A stretch of 64,000 nt of DNA, taken from assembly GCA_016124415.1 (NCBI GenBank), contig WGNS01000045.1, positions 2,013 to 66,012 of the forward strand, given 5' to 3'. The DNA is from Gammaproteobacteria bacterium (GTDB lineage: Bacteria > Pseudomonadota > Gammaproteobacteria > SZUA-140). Both the position numbers and the translations under genes were made by a program. The notes under the pieces were generated by a model, which was not told the origin of the DNA, searched no databases, and saw nothing but the letters and a program-made list of their open reading frames with translations. Shown here one piece after another: positions 44,746 to 52,109 of this stretch (its first letter is position 1; every line of letters starts with the position of its first letter).

Positions 44746-46107
44746 ATGTCGCTTTCGGTCGCAGGCAAAGAGACTCACGAACGTCGTCTACACGCGTTCA
44801 AGCACGCCCTGGAACAGGGTGCGCTCTCGAACCTGCGCCAGATGATCAACGGTCTCCACCCGGCCGAGGTCGCCCATCTTCTGGAATCCTTCCCCGTCGA
44901 GGAGCGCGAGCTGCTCTGGGAAATGGTCGACCCGGAGAAGGACGGCGACGTCCTGCTCTACGTCAACGACGAGGTGCGCGCCAGCCTGATCCGAGAGATG
45001 GGCCATCAGGAGCTCGTTGCCGCCGCCGAAGGTCTCGACACCGACGACCTCGCCGATTTTCTTCAGGACCTGCCCGACGTCGTCATCAAGGAGGTCCTGC
45101 AGTCCCTCAACGATCAAAACCGCCAGCGTCTCGAGTCCGTCCTCTCCTATCCGGACGACACGGCCGGCGGCCTCATGAACACCGATACGATTACGGTTCG
45201 CCCCGACGTGACGCTGGACGTGGTCCTGCGCTATTTGCGCATGCGGAGCGAGTTGCCCGAGGCGACGGACCGGCTCTACGTCGTCGATCGCGGTGACCGC
45301 TATCTCGGCGCGCTGTCCCTGTCGGCCCTGCTGACGAGACCCGAAGACCAGATCGTCGCCCAGGTCATGGACCGCGGCATCAACGCCATTCCGGCGCATT
45401 TGTCCGAGCGCGAGGTCGCGAGCCTGTTCGAAAAGCGCGACCTGGTGTCCGCGCCCGTGATCGACGAGCAGGGCAAGCTCATCGGCCGTATCACCGTCGA
45501 CGACGTCGTCGACGTCATCCGCGACGAGGCCGACCACTCGCTCATGAGCATGGCCGGTCTGGACGAGGAGGACGACATGTTCGCGCCGGTCATGGTCAGC
45601 GCCAGGAGTCGCGCGATCTGGCTCGGCATCAACCTGGCCACGGCCTTCCTGGCGTCCTGGGTCATTGGTTTGTTCGAGAACACCCTGAGCCGGTTCGTCG
45701 CGCTCGCGGTCCTGATGCCGATCGTGGCCAGCATGGGCGGCATCGCCGGCAGCCAGACGCTGACGCTTGTGATCCGTGGACTCGCATTGGGCCGCGTGGG
45801 TTCGGCGAACGCCCGCCGTTTGCTCTTCAAGGAGCTTGCCGTGGGGCTGTTGAACGGGCTGCTGTGGGCCTTGGTCGTGGCTGCGATCGCGATCCTCTGG
45901 TTCGACGACTACCGGATCGGCGCGATTATCGGCACCGCTATCGTCGTGAACCTGCTGTTTGCCGCCTTCTCGGGGGCGGTGATTCCCTTGTTGCTGCGCC
46001 GCTTCGGCGCCGACCCGGCACTCGGCGGCAGCGTCATGCTGACGACCGTGACCGACGTAGTCGGCTTCATGGCCTTCCTCGGATTAGCGACGATCTTCCT
46101 TCGCTGA
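44746..46107 (+). CDS. mgtE: Magnesium transporter MgtE
   Basis: HPAEVAHLLE, CBS pair, and the C-terminal transmembrane module PIVASMGGIAGSQT...TTVTDVVGF. 453 aa. Confidence 0.92.
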   Translation: MSLSVAGKETHERRLHAFKHALEQGALSNLRQMINGLHPAEVAHLLESFPVEERELLWEMVDPEKDGDVLLYVNDEVRASLIREMGHQELVAAAEGLDTDDLADFLQDLPDVVIKEVLQSLNDQNRQRLESVLSYPDDTAGGLMNTDTITVRPDVTLDVVLRYLRMRSELPEATDRLYVVDRGDRYLGALSLSALLTRPEDQIVAQVMDRGINAIPAHLSEREVASLFEKRDLVSAPVIDEQGKLIGRITVDDVVDVIRDEADHSLMSMAGLDEEDDMFAPVMVSARSRAIWLGINLATAFLASWVIGLFENTLSRFVALAVLMPIVASMGGIAGSQTLTLVIRGLALGRVGSANARRLLFKELAVGLLNGLLWALVVAAIAILWFDDYRIGAIIGTAIVVNLLFAAFSGAVIPLLLRRFGADPALGGSVMLTTVTDVVGFMAFLGLATIFLR

Positions 46108-46650
46108 GGCGCGGATCAGCGCCTTGAGCTCGCCAAGGGCCGTCTTGAAGTCGTCATTGATGACGCAATAGTCGTATTCACCGGCGTGCGACATCTCTTC
46201 GTCCGCCTGGCGCATCCGTCGTGCGATGACGGCCTCGTCATCCTGTCCGCGTGAACGCAGGCGTTCCTCGAGTACGGCCTTCGACGGTGGGTTGATGTAG
46301 ATCGTGACTGCGTCCGGGCACATTTTCCGTACCTGCTGTGCGCCCTGCCAGTCGATCTCCAAAATCACGTTCCTGCCTGCCGCCATCTGGTCTTCGACCG
46401 ATTGCCGGGTCGTGCCGTAAGCGTTGTCGAACACGCGGGCGTATTCGAGGAAGGCGCCCGCGTCGACGAGTTCGTTGAAACGTTCCTGGGAGACGAAATG
46501 GTAATCGCGCCCGTCCTGTTCCCCGGGGCGGGGCGCGCGCGTCGTGTGAGAGACCGAGACCACCACGTCATCCATATCGTTGATGAGCGCGCGCACGAGA
46601 CTGGTCTTACCGGCGCCCGACGGCGCCGATACGATGAACAATTTTCCCAT
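46084..46650 (-). CDS. gmk: Guanylate kinase
   Basis: LFIVSAPSGAGKTSLVRAL and VSHTTRAPRPGEQDGRDYHFV, 188 aa. The 3' end overlaps the mgtE 3' end by 24 nt. Confidence 0.92.
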   Translation of the reverse strand: MGKLFIVSAPSGAGKTSLVRALINDMDDVVVSVSHTTRAPRPGEQDGRDYHFVSQERFNELVDAGAFLEYARVFDNAYGTTRQSVEDQMAAGRNVILEIDWQGAQQVRKMCPDAVTIYINPPSKAVLEERLRSRGQDDEAVIARRMRQADEEMSHAGEYDYCVINDDFKTALGELKALIRASAKEDRR

Positions 46651-46653
46651 TGG

Positions 46654-47529
46654 TTACTCCACGTTCTGGATCTGTTCCCGCATCTGTTCGATGACGACCT
46701 TGAGCTCGAGCGCCACGCGGGTCAGCCGCATGTCCTGCGACTTCGATGCCAGCGTGTTCGCCTCGCGATTGAGTTCCTGCATCAGGAAATCCAAACGCCG
46801 GCCGACCGGTTCGTCGGCGTCGAGCAGGCGCTGGACCTCCTCAACGTGCAGATCGACGCGGTCGAGTTCCTCGTGGACGTCCGTGCGTTGCGCGATGACG
46901 GCGATCTCTTGTTCCAGTCTGCCTTCATCGAGGCGGGCGCTAAGTTCGTCGAGACGCTCGCGAAGCCTCTTGCGCTGGCCGTCGACGATCTCCGGCAGGA
47001 CCGTCCGAAGTCCCGCGACCTCATCGAGGACGATCTGGCAGCGTGAGGCCAACAGGGGATGGATCTTTTCGCCCTCGGTGTTCCGGGCCGTGCAGAAACC
47101 GTCCAGCACCTTGCCGAAAAGCTTCCGTGCGGCGTCCTTCGCCGCTTTGAGGTCCGCGGTATCGGCCTCGATCAGGCCGGGCCAGCCAAGCAGATCCATC
47201 GGATTGACGGCAATCGTCCGGTTCGGGCGGTTGCCCAATAGGTCCTCGATCCGACGAACCGCGGCCAGCAACTGTTCGAGTCTGGTCTCGTCCAGGCGGA
47301 GCGGGTGCTCGCCCGGGGCGGGGGGCTTGTACTTGAGCGCGCACTCGCACTTGCCACGGCGGATTCGCGCCCCGATCCGGTCGCGGACGACCGGCTCAAG
47401 GTCGCGGAATTCGTCGGGCAGGCGGACGGAAATATCGAGGAAACGGTGATTGACGCTGCGCAGTTCCCACGACAACACGCCGTAGGGCCCTTGTTCCTCC
47501 AGGCTCGAAAAGGCCGTCATGCTGTACAT
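46654..47529 (-). CDS. yicC: YicC-family stress-induced protein
   Basis: MTAF...WELRSVNHRFLD and the C-terminal QELNREANTLASKS signature, 291 aa. Confidence 0.88.
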   Translation of the reverse strand: MYSMTAFSSLEEQGPYGVLSWELRSVNHRFLDISVRLPDEFRDLEPVVRDRIGARIRRGKCECALKYKPPAPGEHPLRLDETRLEQLLAAVRRIEDLLGNRPNRTIAVNPMDLLGWPGLIEADTADLKAAKDAARKLFGKVLDGFCTARNTEGEKIHPLLASRCQIVLDEVAGLRTVLPEIVDGQRKRLRERLDELSARLDEGRLEQEIAVIAQRTDVHEELDRVDLHVEEVQRLLDADEPVGRRLDFLMQELNREANTLASKSQDMRLTRVALELKVVIEQMREQIQNVE

Positions 47530-47668: not shown

Positions 47669-50600
47669 ATGAATCAGCAAATAAATCCGGAAGGAGGTGT
47701 CCGGGCGCATATGGATAAACGCAGATATCCAAGATATTCCGTGCGTCTGGAAGGCCAGTGCGTGACCGGCGGCGGACAAGTTCATCCCTGCCTGATACTC
47801 GATCTTTGCATGGGTGGGATGTTTCTCGAGCTGACGGATCCGTCAGCTCACGCGACGGTGCGCGCCGGTGATCAGGTAACCGTCGTGTGCAACGTGCCCG
47901 GAGGCCAGGTCAACGGATACGCCTTCAACGCGCGTATCGCCCGCGCGCACGATTCGAGCATCGGCTTGGCGTTCATTGCCCCCGACTTGGCGCAGGTAAG
48001 GAGTTTGATCGATCGCGCGCGCAGTCTCTATCCCCAGCGCACTGCAACGGCCCCTTCCGCCCAGCAACCGCTACGTTCGCTGCCCGAGGTCATCGCCGAC
48101 TGCCAGGCCAAGGTGCTTATCGCTATTCCCGCAGTGCTTGAAGGTTTTCTGAAGGCTGCGGCCGAAGAGATCTTCAGTAGGGTGGACGGCCTCAAAAACC
48201 ATACCCAACAGAACGCATATTTCACCGCGCTCACGGCGATCAAATGCAAGAATGACGAGTTCAATGGCCGGTTCATGGCGTCGATCAGGCAGTCGTTTGC
48301 ATCGCCTCCCACGGATCGCAAGGCAGCCGCAAGCATGGACATGGGATCCGGCAACGAGTTGACCTTGATGGACGAGGATCTCGTCGAGGATTGGCTCGCG
48401 TCCGCGGATATCGTTTGCCACGTCGAAGCGAAGAACAAAATGGTCTTGAACGCGCTTCAGCAGCGTTTGACCCATCTGTACGGTCGCGATATCGATGCCG
48501 AGAACAATCCGTTCCGACCGCTGATTTTTTCCGACGCCCTGCAGGCGGCCCTCAAGCCCTGGTTGTTCGAACACGAGGTCTATCAGATTTGTTTATCCGT
48601 ATTCCGCAGCCATTTCGTGGTGGCCTGCGAGCCGCTTTACGAGGACCTGAATCGGATCCTCGTCGAGGCGGGAATTCTTCCCGGGCTTCACCTGCGCACG
48701 TCGGTACCTAAAAATCCCAGGCCGCGGTCGCGTCCGATGGCCGATTCCGATGCCGACGATGCGCCTTTGGCGCGCGAGGCGCAGAGTAATGGCGTCGGCA
48801 ATCGCGCTCCGCCGGCCGCGCCCCCGGCGGCGGGATCCAATCAGCTTTCGATATTCGATATCGTCGATGACATCGAGACGCTGCGAGAGGAAATTTTGCG
48901 CAAGGTCCAGAGGACCGATGCGGCAGCGGCCGAGCAGCCCGCAAATCATGGCGAAAGACGCGGCAGCTATTCGGTTGATGAGCTCATGAACGCCCTGGAC
49001 GCGATCCATCTCGACGATCCTAAGCACGTTCGGACCGAGCAGGACGATTTCCTGTCTCAAATCGATGCCTACTTGCAGGCGCATACGGGGGAGCGCAGGC
49101 AGTTTCCGAGGCGGGAACGCGGCATCATGGACGTCGGCAGCCGAATCTTCACTTCGTTGCGCGGCGATCCTCAGGTTTCCGGGCAGGTGAAAACCTGGCT
49201 CAAAGAGCTTGAAATCCCGCTCATGAAGCTCGCGCTGAAGGATCACGCGTTCCTGATGGACCGCGATCATATCCTGCGCAGGATCATCAATAACGTCTCG
49301 ATGCTCGAAGTCTACGGCAACGACGAGGATGGGTTGGGCGACAGCGCCGTATGCCACAAGATCGACAATCTCATCCAGCGCATCGTCAAATACCGTACCG
49401 GAGACGACGCCCAGATCCTGAAAAAGGCCTTGCGCGAACTCGAACTCCTGGTCGAACTGCAAAACGACGCCTACCGGGAGAACTTCAACGAGGTCGTCCG
49501 GGGTTGCCTTGAGGAGCAGCCGCTGTTGAGCCAGGCCAATGCCGGCGATTCGACCGCCCGGGAAAAACTATCCTTCCTGAAGGCGGCGGGCGCGGCTGAC
49601 GACGAGGTTGTCGGCGAGCCCGAGTTCGCCGATTGGCTGGCGCGGGTGCACAGACTCAAACTCAACAACTGGATCCTTCTTGCCGACGAAGCCGGCGAGG
49701 CGCGCAGGCTCAAGCTTGCCTGGGTGACCAAGCAGCAGGATCGCTACGTGTTCGTCAATCTGCTTGGGCAGAAGGAAGTCACGTTGACGGATCGTCAGTT
49801 GGCCGCGGCCTTCATGACCGGGCAGGCCGAGGCGCTGGAAAGCGCCAACGAGCCGGCCATGGACCGCGCCCAGCACGCGATGCTGCAGCGACTGCATCAT
49901 CAACTGATTCGTGAGACGACGCACGACGGCGTCACGGCCTTGCTCAATCGTCGCGAGTTCGAAAAGCGGTTGGGGCATTTCATGTTGCAGGACGTTCAGA
50001 CGCGCGCGCCCAAGGTTCTCTGCTGTCTCGATGTCGTCCAGTTCCGGGCCGTCAATGAAAGCTGCGGCAGCGCCGCAGGCGACCGCCTTCTGCGCGAGAT
50101 AGCGGATCGGCTTCGGGTTGCGTTCGACCACGCGCCCATGGCCCGGCTCGGCAATGACGAGTTCGCCATTCTGCTCGACGGCGACGCGGAGTCCGCCCGG
50201 ACCCGGATGGATCGTCTACAGGAAGAACTGAGTTTGGAGACCTTCGTCCACGGCGACAGGCGTTATCCGATTGCGCTGAATGTCGGTCTGGCGCCCGTCT
50301 CCGAAGTCGCCGCGTATCCGGCCGGTATCGTGTTGGCGGCCGAAGACGCCTGCCGTCGGGCCAAGCATTCGGATAAGTCGGTATGCGTACTGGCTTCCGA
50401 GCCCGTCGAGGATCCGGAGACCGCGAAGGCCTTGGAATGGCTGGTCAAGGTCAACGAGGCGATTCAGAAACGCGAGGTGCATTTGCGCTATCAGCCGATC
50501 GTGAACATCTCCGGACCTCAGGCCGGCGAGATCCACCATTCGGAAATCCTGCTTTCAGTCCTCGGAGATGACGGCGAGCCGGTGTCACCCCAGGACTTTG

Positions 50601-51222
50601 TGCTGGCCGCGGAGCGTTTTCATCGTATGCCGACCTTGGATCGCCTGATCGTTCAGGAGACCTTCTCGTGGGCCGCGGCGCATCCGGAATTGATCCCGAA
50701 GACGGGATCGCTCGCGGTCAATCTGTCCGGGAAGTCGCTGAACGATCCGAGTTTCCTCGGGTTCCTGATGGACCTGCTAAGAACCAGCGGTGTGCCGGTC
50801 GAACATGTCAGCTTCGAGGTTACCGAGACCGCGGGCGTCAACAGCATGAGCCAGGCCTCGGCTTTCATCGAGGCCGTCAGGGAAGCGGGATGTTCTTTCT
50901 CCCTCGATGATTTCGGCAGTGGGATGTCCTCCTACGGCTATCTCAAGCACCTGCCCGTCGATATCCTGAAGATCGACGGCGCGTTCGTGCGCGCCATGGA
51001 CAAGAATCCGGAAGACTTCGCGATCGTCAAACGATCACCGAGATCGCGCACTTCATGGGCAAGAGGGTCATTGCAGAGTGTGTCGAGAATGAGCAGATCC
51101 TGACCCTGCTCGCGGAGCTGGGGGTCGATTACGCTCAGGGTTACCACGTCGGTCGCCCCAGGATGCTGAGCGATCTGGTCGCCGAATACGGAGACCAGAT
51201 GCGGCCGTCTCAGGCCGTATAA
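47669..51222 (+). pseudogene. PilZ-DUF1631-GGDEF(degenerate)-EAL signalling protein, interrupted by an apparent 1-nt deletion near 51026-51033
   Basis: PilZ domain: RRYPR...DLCMGG. DUF1631-like middle region (~650 aa). GGDEF domain with the signature replaced by LGNDEF. EAL domain: YQPIV, EILLSV, NLS, EVTE, DDFGSG, KIDGAF. After DFAIVK the track frame yields junk and stops at 51103. The frame shifted by -1 reads ITEIAHFMGKRVIAECVENEQILTLLAELGVDYAQGYHVGRP...*, the canonical EAL C-terminus, ending at 51222. Confidence 0.8.
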
Positions 51223-52109
51223 CCGTAACGGGCGGACAGGCTGTGTTGTTCGCCGGGCGCCAAATGGATGCCGTCGTCGGCCGCGTTCGTCGTCTCCACG
51301 CAGATCATATTGAGATGGCCGGATTCGCCCATGTCCCCCAATCGTTCCGCCTTTTCCACCCAGGGATTCCAGATCACCGCGGAACTTGATCCCCTGGCGC
51401 TGATCGAAATCGTGCGGTCCAGAAGTGGGTCGAAGATCGAATATTCCTCCGGACAGTTCAGATAGATCCGGTCGACCTCGGACGAAATCGTCACCGGTCC
51501 GGACTGTACGTTCTCGCCGCCGTTGACCTTGTCCAGATAGGCGCATTGATCGAATCCGTTGATCTGGATCTGACGCACGTCGCCGACCAGAAAATAGGTG
51601 TGCAGCGCCTGCGTCAACAGATACGGTTCGTCGCCGCCGTTGAAGGTCTCGAGTTCGAACGCGAGGGCGTTTCCGACTTCTATCGTAAGCCGTACCTCCA
51701 GAGCATCCGTCGCGACGGACCGCTCAGTCGGTCTCGGCAACGCGAGAATCAGGCGTGTCCCTCCGTCGGGCAGGGATGACGTCTCGATCGGCGCCCACAG
51801 GGCGGTGCGGGCGAAGCCGTGCGCGGGCGCATTGGGGTCCGTGGGATGCGGTCCGAACCAGGGCCAGCAAACCGGGACGCCGCCGCGGATGGATTTGCCT
51901 TGGGCGAAACGTACGGCCTTGCTGAGCCATAGCAGGGGGTGTTTGCCGGTCGCCTGGTAGTCGACGACGTGAGCGCCTTGCAGGGCGACCGTCGCGCGCC
52001 CGAGTTCGTTTTCGATCTCGACGAAATCCAGTCCACCGTGACCCGTGACGAAACTGAGTTCTCCCGGAAGCACCAAATCCCCGTAGACGGACGTATTCGA
52101 ACTCATCAT
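51210..52109 (-). CDS. D-hexose-6-phosphate mutarotase (aldose 1-epimerase family, YeaD-like)
   Basis: LLWLSKAVRFAQGKSIRGGVPVCWPWFGPH...HGFAR, 299 aa. Confidence 0.8.
   Translation of the reverse strand: MMSSNTSVYGDLVLPGELSFVTGHGGLDFVEIENELGRATVALQGAHVVDYQATGKHPLLWLSKAVRFAQGKSIRGGVPVCWPWFGPHPTDPNAPAHGFARTALWAPIETSSLPDGGTRLILALPRPTERSVATDALEVRLTIEVGNALAFELETFNGGDEPYLLTQALHTYFLVGDVRQIQINGFDQCAYLDKVNGGENVQSGPVTISSEVDRIYLNCPEEYSIFDPLLDRTISISARGSSSAVIWNPWVEKAERLGDMGESGHLNMICVETTNAADDGIHLAPGEQHSLSARYGYTA

Follow-up and report, generated by a model that had tools for sequence, protein, structure and literature searches.

A frameshifted PilZ-DUF1631-GGDEF-EAL gene in a hot-spring gammaproteobacterial genome and the widespread, uncharacterized family to which it belongs

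Domain organization of the gene

The present study concerns a gene located at positions 47669-51222 of a 64,000-nucleotide (nt) stretch of DNA (hereafter, the window) from a Gammaproteobacteria bacterium of the lineage SZUA-140 (assembly GCA_016124415.1, contig WGNS01000045.1, positions 2,013-66,012 of the forward strand). The source is a metagenome-assembled genome (MAG) of 2.19 Mb in 98 contigs, which is approximately 80% complete and was obtained from a hot-springs metagenome run. As assembled, the open reading frame (ORF) covers 47669-51103 on the forward strand, on which all of the features of the gene described below are also located, and encodes 1144 amino acids (aa), the final 23 of which represent out-of-frame sequence past a frameshift. 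Profile searches confirmed that the gene encodes a predicted four-part signaling protein for cyclic dimeric GMP (c-di-GMP), consisting of a putative receptor, an uncharacterized helical module, a dead cyclase, and a probable phosphodiesterase (PDE). The true start codon is probably Met15 (47711-47713) because the closest homologs begin at the equivalent residue (MDKRRY or MNKRRY), and the sequence upstream of it is not conserved in L090, a Logan contig from a related hot-spring population that has the same gene order and 77% nt identity to the window gene.

The PilZ domain that had been claimed for the N terminus was supported by Pfam (residues 16-114, 47714-48010; 33.0 bits, the gathering cut-off being 22.5; E = 7.7e-8). 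The RxxxR motif reads RRYPR (residues 18-22, 47720-47734), and R18 and R22 were present in all 138 members having this region among the 155 family members that were aligned for motif scoring. The [D/N]x[S/C]xxG motif reads DLCMGG (residues 45-50, 47801-47818), with Cys47 in place of the canonical Ser. The original prediction had noted this change from DxSxxG, which the family tally showed to be no peculiarity of the window copy: Cys is the norm (131 Cys and 15 Ser in 146 members), the first position is occupied by Asp in 123 members and by Asn in 21, G50 is found in 146 of 146, and the canonical Ser is kept by some members, such as those of HdN1 and Thiodiazotropha. A second Cys, Cys41 (47789-47791), is located six residues before Cys47 (47807-47809) and occurs in 98 of the 145 members with this position. 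Both Cys residues are present in 91 members and may have a redox, metal, or packing role, although a disulfide between them is improbable given their spacing along a single strand.

An AlphaFold model of residues 1-760, which was built from a 38-sequence alignment and had a mean predicted local distance difference test score (pLDDT) of 82, placed the PilZ barrel with its helix first, then a flexible linker and an all-helical stretch (138-661), and after these a beta-barrel (668-723) and a helix (730-751). The modeled PilZ domain has the six-stranded barrel fold (beta-barrel 23-102, helix 107-120, pLDDT >90). In a Foldseek search of the PDB with the 760-aa model, 18 matches were obtained at E <= 0.001 (3.5e-5 to 6.6e-4), every one of which was a PilZ domain, and the best was 9b8v_E (E = 3.5e-5, root-mean-square deviation of 2.0 Å over 99 columns). 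Most of the matched structures, which included those of BcsA, MapZ, YcgR, Alg44, and PA0012, were solved with c-di-GMP bound. The window PilZ domain shares the beta-barrel fold and the RxxxR motif with YcgR, MapZ, Alg44, and BcsA. Its second motif is of the [D/N]xSxxG type but differs from theirs by having Cys at the Ser position, and its putative output is an enzyme of the same polypeptide that degrades c-di-GMP instead of a motor, a methyltransferase, or a glycosyltransferase.

Regarding the central region, the assignment to DUF1631 (PF07793) also held in the N-terminal part of the protein, with a Pfam score of 292.5 bits against a gathering score of 33.7 (E = 1e-86). The match comprises an all-helical N-terminal region (residues 135-602, 48071-49474; profile positions 3-470), into which a Pro/Ala-rich segment that is disordered in the model is inserted (residues 343-391, 48695-48841), and a C-terminal part (residues ~627-742, 49547-49894; profile positions 628-741) that includes an SH3/Tudor-like beta-barrel at residues 668-723. 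The third DUF1631 sub-domain (PF26672, DUF1631_3rd) is absent: profile positions ~470-628 were unmatched, and the sub-domain does not appear in the precomputed domain list. The window protein accordingly lacks the full four-part DUF1631 layout, and approximately two-thirds of the fused family are likewise without PF26672. No known fold was recognized for the helical core, as every PDB match at E <= 0.001 was to a PilZ domain, and when PDB sequences were searched by profile, the matches were to GGDEF and EAL only. We also considered a hidden second PilZ domain in the C-terminal barrel; when modeled alone (pLDDT 77), this barrel gave weak SH3/Tudor-like matches (best 6wau, E = 6e-3, TM-score on the target of ~0.65), none of which was a PilZ domain, and this candidate was rejected. 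Following the barrel, a long helix with the conserved pattern P.[LM]DRAQ..MLQ.LH.QL (residues 730-751, 49856-49921), which was seen in both the model and the alignment, runs straight into the GGDEF domain and is a candidate signaling helix.

The GGDEF domain (PF00990; residues 751-902, 49919-50374; 72.6 bits against 23.8, E = 4e-20) is degenerate, as had been proposed. Its active site reads GNDEF (residues 828-832, 50150-50164; LGNDEF at 827-832), and the position of the inhibitory site (I-site) reads FDHA in place of RxxD. With these two changes, the domain is predicted to be unable to make c-di-GMP. It has kept D788, N796, and D805, which we take to be the metal and guanosine triphosphate (GTP) residues of GGDEF domains, with N796 and D805 presumably corresponding to the GTP-contacting N335 and D344 of PleD. 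Since the residues aligning with GTP-contacting positions are retained, this domain is probably regulatory by analogy with those of RbdA and PdeA. The same residues, together with the 29 of 143 long-form members that keep a canonical GG[DE]EF along with the EAL domain, might be taken to favor a bifunctional diguanylate cyclase and PDE switched by PilZ. We consider this highly improbable because loss of the second Gly generally abolishes the cyclase activity of GGDEF domains, and the active site reads GNDEF not only in the window protein, but also in its three closest relatives (P0003, P0004, and P0005), and GNDTF in P0006.

The EAL domain extends to residue 1121 (residues 928-1121, 50450-51031; Pfam E = 8e-41), and the profile match ends early, at position 193 of 236, because the reading frame breaks there. 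The missing C terminus, of 62 aa and a stop codon, lies in another frame at 51034-51222; it reads ITEIAHFMGKRVIAECVENE...QGYHVGRP, carries AECVENE and QGY, and has its stop codon at 51220-51222. The predicted end of the gene at 51222 is consequently correct for the conserved EAL C terminus, and is attained only by switching frame. Similarly, the full set of EAL motifs that had been listed is correct when both frames are read: E959 (EIL, 959-961), N1018, E1050 and E1053 (EVTE, 1050-1053), D1080 and D1081 (DDFG, 1080-1083), and K1101 (KID, 1101-1103) are encoded in the ORF, while ECVENE and QGY are found in the downstream frame only. E1137, the first Glu of AECVENE, which we take to be the general base, and Q1157 are both put out of frame by the deletion, and the metal-binding and catalytic set is complete in the read-through sequence.

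The closest structures to the EAL domain were those of RbdA (PA0861; 8pps and 5xgb, E ~1e-57 with EAL only), and RbdA was also the closest solved structure by sequence for the GGDEF-EAL pair, with a profile E of 1.8e-182 over both domains. RbdA, a PAS-GGDEF-EAL PDE of Pseudomonas aeruginosa, resembles the window protein in the loop-6 sequence (DDFxxGMSS) and in the helix leading into the GGDEF domain. It differs in being membrane-anchored with a PAS sensor, a canonical GGDEF, and the Arg of EALxR, whereas the window protein is predicted to be cytoplasmic and has PilZ and DUF1631 as input, GNDEF, and Ser. RbdA is an active, GTP-stimulated PDE in which the GGDEF domain binds GTP and regulates the EAL domain, and regulation by GTP binding is likewise reported for PdeA.

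Frameshift in the window copy

The frameshift lies at 51029-51034 (aaa-cg-atc) and corresponds to a 1-nt deletion at 51032 relative to the homologs. The first frame encodes the EAL sequence up to K1121 (51029-51031); after two further bases (cg), this sequence resumes from 51034. Homologs carry Ser at the break (AIVKSITEIAHF) and read AIVK-S-ITEIAHF, with aag tcg atc (K-S-I) in a relative, which indicates that one base is missing in the window copy. Because of this frameshift, the window copy as assembled is predicted not to be an active PDE. A programmed frameshift was rejected as unlikely: it would require the ribosome to slip by -1 at GUC AAA CGA, and this site does not form a slippery heptamer. 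The orthologs examined at this position, P0003, P0004 (1169 aa), and P0005 (L090), are in frame, and G002, from the same genus, has a full-length open frame of 1202 aa.

The ratio of nonsynonymous to synonymous substitutions (dN/dS) against L090 was 0.16 in PilZ, 0.20 in DUF1631, 0.09 in GGDEF, and 0.06 in the EAL domain before the break. Past the break, it was 0.028 over 62 codons at a dS of 0.75. This pattern along the gene, including the low value after the break, suggests that the lesion is either very recent or an artefact. The window copy is thus probably a recent pseudogene or an assembly error, and between these two we lean toward a real mutation; if the deletion is real, the copy would represent either a pseudogene of very recent origin or a truncated protein devoid of PDE activity.

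The alternative, in which the frameshift arose from faulty assembly or consensus calling of an approximately 9x metagenome and the gene of the organism is intact and functional, is less probable, though a serious contender. It is favored by the low depth (word depth 9.1), by the very strong purifying selection on the segment past the break, by the intact orthologs in P0003, P0004, and G002, and by the AAA run that adjoins the break. On the other hand, Logan's separate assembly of the source run matched window positions 50700-51400 (701 nt) with zero differences, so that the two assemblies of the source data agree, and Illumina sequencing rarely introduces indels at homopolymers of 3 nt. In a related population found in other hot-spring runs, one extra base at 51030/31 restores the frame.

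In L090, the gene is affected by two lesions different from that of the window copy, namely, a TAG codon and the loss of 2 nt inside PilZ (L090:3269-3900; corresponding to window positions 47891 and 47940-47941), and its EAL domain is intact. This is the opposite of the lesion pattern in the window copy, and two related hot-spring populations accordingly carry different lesions in the same gene. These lesions, which also speak against an assembly error, hint that decay of the gene is real in the small-genome lineage of the window and L090.

A further point against an assembly error is that the loss would be tolerable. The genome to which the window belongs has 11 EAL loci (12 matches, two of which are in this gene); therefore, at least 10 others are present, and given this redundancy, the loss of one PDE could cost the genome little. 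Including this gene, 18 GGDEF matches and nine PilZ matches (one below the Pfam cut-off) were counted in the same genome. This is a large c-di-GMP repertoire for a 2.2-Mb genome that is approximately 80% complete, and most of its EAL domains are located in open frames of 760-1076 aa.

Family conservation, DUF1631 relatives, and gene neighborhood

The architecture had been described as unusual in the original prediction, and this did not survive a wider search. A HMMER search with the N-terminal 760 aa against 1.84 billion 50%-identity representatives gave 3366 matches, 242 of which were below 1e-30; nearly all of the best 150 of these 3366 matches were 1100-1370 aa in length and aligned from residue ~15, the start of PilZ. 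The same domain list was recovered by a word-indexed search in P0003 (65% identity), P0004, P0006, and P0009, and all four Pfam domains were found in six of the seven copies tested, the seventh lacking the PilZ call only. A scan of species genomes detected full-length copies in at least 20 gammaproteobacterial species, including members of Chromatiales, Ectothiorhodospiraceae, Thiohalomonadales, and Pseudomonadales as well as Methyloglobulus, Candidatus Thiodiazotropha, and the gamma proteobacterium HdN1, the genome of which is complete. The long form was also present in approximately half of the sampled genomes of the taxonomic family of the window. As it comprises hundreds of clusters at 50% identity and occurs in the genomes of at least 20 named species, PilZ-DUF1631-GGDEF-EAL is a large and widespread gammaproteobacterial family, and represents an uncharacterized variant of composite GGDEF-EAL signaling proteins. 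The architecture is therefore common, as had been foreseen as one possible outcome, and not already characterized: no description, experimental or other, was found in the literature on DUF1631, PacR, PilZ-GGDEF-EAL, and PilZ-DUF1631.

Among the 143 long-form representatives over which classes were counted, the PilZ motifs were intact in 127, all nine of the scored EAL residues were intact in 104, and a canonical GG[DE]EF was present in 29. When read through the break, the window protein belongs to the commonest class, with intact PilZ motifs, a degenerate GGDEF, an intact EAL, and no third DUF1631 sub-domain.

A maximum-likelihood tree of the DUF1631 region contained one branch, with a Shimodaira-Hasegawa-like approximate likelihood ratio test (SH-aLRT) value of 100, that parted 52 of 52 fused proteins from 30 of 30 stand-alone proteins, including a PacR ortholog. 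This single, fully supported branch suggests that the fused family is a distinct clade of old origin, as would be expected if the domains had been joined or separated only once. The only DUF1631 protein that has been studied and has a phenotype is PacR (XC_3388) of Xanthomonas campestris, the deletion of which deregulates many c-di-GMP genes and alters motility, extracellular polysaccharide, and biofilm (PMC9543026). PacR and other stand-alone proteins (PF07793; NCBIfam NF058594) have the helical DUF1631 module and the C-terminal barrel in common with the window protein; PacR differs in having no PilZ, GGDEF, or EAL domain and in possessing the third sub-domain that the window protein lacks. 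The window protein scored 77 bits on NF058594, for which the curated cut-off is 1200 and a true ortholog reached 1374, and it is not a member of the PacR family.

A split version of the fused pairing is found in Xanthomonadaceae. Of 41 species sampled in this family, 39 had a PilZ ortholog, and in 39 of 39 this gene directly follows a DUF1631 gene in the same orientation (G031-G071). The PilZ gene of the pair encodes a canonical domain of 115-117 aa (RRAPRR...NVSETG), as at Stenotrophomonas-type loci such as that of P0019 with its 115-aa PilZ, and the two genes overlapped by 4 nt (stop/start) in the three loci inspected (L092:5001-7861, L111:3001-5831, and L112:3001-5819). Both modules of the fused protein are present, within a few kb of gmk-yicC; in contrast to the fused protein, they form two polypeptides that carry no enzyme domains, and their order is reversed, with DUF1631 encoded first and PilZ second. 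The PilZ-linked DUF1631 protein is not PacR, as it scored 194 bits on NF058594 against the cut-off of 1200, whereas another paralog in the same genome scored 1374, and the pair is not mentioned in the PacR paper (PMC9543026). The pairing is not universal because stand-alone DUF1631 genes in Pseudomonas have no PilZ neighbor, and none was found at 18 stand-alone loci in the taxonomic family of the window. Two database entries were noted among the relatives: P0025, a DUF1631 protein that shares 77% identity with proteins of Stenotrophomonas, is recorded as belonging to Bacillus subtilis, probably through contamination of the assembly, and P0263, a DUF1631 protein of S. maltophilia, bears the name thymidine phosphorylase, which is probably a misannotation.

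In the window, the fused gene is flanked by a divergent yicC upstream (46654-47529, reverse strand), followed by gmk (46084-46650), and by a convergent gene of the aldose 1-epimerase family downstream (51210-52109, reverse strand), the 3' end of which overlaps the restored end of the fused gene by 13 nt (51210-51222). The convergent 3' ends of mgtE and gmk overlap by 24 nt (46084-46107). The neighbors gmk, yicC, the aldose epimerase, and a Kef-type antiporter are conserved in L003 and L090. A conserved partner gene, such as a kinase, was sought beside this subfamily, and the neighbors in the window, L003, and L090 were these four genes with no such partner. The fused gene adjoins gmk-yicC (46084-47529), and the Xanthomonadaceae pair is located approximately 3 kb from gmk-yicC (L092:264-1786), with rph, glyoxalase, rdgB, and hemN between them; this proximity in both could be a remnant of shared positional ancestry or chance.

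Possible mode of action and significance

Taken together, these results slightly favor the interpretation that the window gene is a frameshifted member of an old cytoplasmic PilZ-DUF1631-GGDEF-EAL family, the intact members of which would be RbdA-like PDEs gated by their own PilZ domain through DUF1631. Judging from the conserved binding motifs, c-di-GMP would bind to the N-terminal PilZ barrel. As the anatomy of the protein suggests, the signal may then pass through approximately 600 aa of helical DUF1631, the C-terminal beta-barrel, and the conserved helix to the GGDEF-EAL pair, in which the GGDEF domain, with its retained N796 and D805, may have a regulatory role through GTP binding. The RbdA-like PDE activity of the EAL domain would in this manner be set by its own substrate, and the protein would by itself constitute a homeostat or threshold device for c-di-GMP. 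The coupling of a receptor to a PDE through DUF1631, which had been proposed from the window sequence, still appears to be the best reading, and it gains support from the conservation of the PilZ motifs across the family and from the conserved DUF1631-PilZ gene pair elsewhere.

Several points weigh against this interpretation. We know of no tested PilZ domain with Cys for the motif Ser, and the Foldseek search of the PDB with the 760-aa model yielded no structural analog of the helical DUF1631 region that would explain how a signal is transmitted. PilZ may either activate or inhibit the PDE. The substrate-binding Arg of EALxR is replaced by Ser963 in the window protein, and the family has Gly in 60 members, Ser in 30, and Arg in 21; as a result of this missing Arg, the PDE activity or affinity may be atypical. 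Moreover, at least one EAL catalytic residue is missing in 39 of the 143 long forms (27%), 34 of which keep intact PilZ motifs, and catalysis is therefore not the invariant function of the family. Concerning the window copy itself, the frameshift rests on contigs assembled at approximately 9x depth, and a consensus error is possible.

Some of these points bear on another explanation, in which the protein would serve to sense c-di-GMP or as a scaffold rather than as an enzyme: the PilZ-DUF1631 core would signal c-di-GMP levels to partners through the DUF1631 surface, and the GGDEF-EAL part would be an accessory module for dimerization or a second receptor, as in FimX and LapD. We regard this as rather unlikely, even though the PilZ motifs are the best-conserved functional site (127 of the 143 long forms), 34 members keep them with both GGDEF and EAL degenerate, most family members lack the Arg of EALxR, and no enzyme domain is attached to the stand-alone DUF1631 and PilZ proteins of Xanthomonadaceae. 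The EAL metal-binding residues, Lys, and the putative general-base Glu are all present in the window protein and its close relatives, and dN/dS is lowest in the EAL domain (0.03-0.06), which fits a conserved active site. Furthermore, the closest solved structure is that of RbdA, an active PDE, and the window, L003, and L090 share no partner gene next to this subfamily.

Returning to the favored interpretation of a PDE gated by its own PilZ domain, we tentatively propose a broader role for DUF1631 as a dedicated partner and transducer of PilZ. The binding of c-di-GMP at PilZ would remodel the helical scaffold, which would gate the PDE in the fused family and act in trans in the Xanthomonadaceae operon. 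The Cys that is found family-wide in the PilZ motif might add further control, such as redox sensitivity.

The window copy itself, a broken member of the family whose small hot-spring MAG has many other c-di-GMP genes, adds little, and the significance of the finding lies with the family. If a PDE carried a receptor that binds its own substrate with high affinity, this would represent a form of c-di-GMP autoregulation that has not yet been described, exerted on the degradation side instead of through the I-site of a cyclase. DUF1631 occurs in thousands of proteobacterial proteins, and PacR controls virulence-related traits in Xanthomonas by a route that seemingly involves c-di-GMP. Two independent genomic links, the ancient fusion family and the DUF1631-PilZ gene pair, now tie this domain to a c-di-GMP receptor and make its function a directly testable hypothesis. 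If the role of DUF1631 as a transducer is true, it would provide the first molecular handle on the PacR/DUF1631 family.

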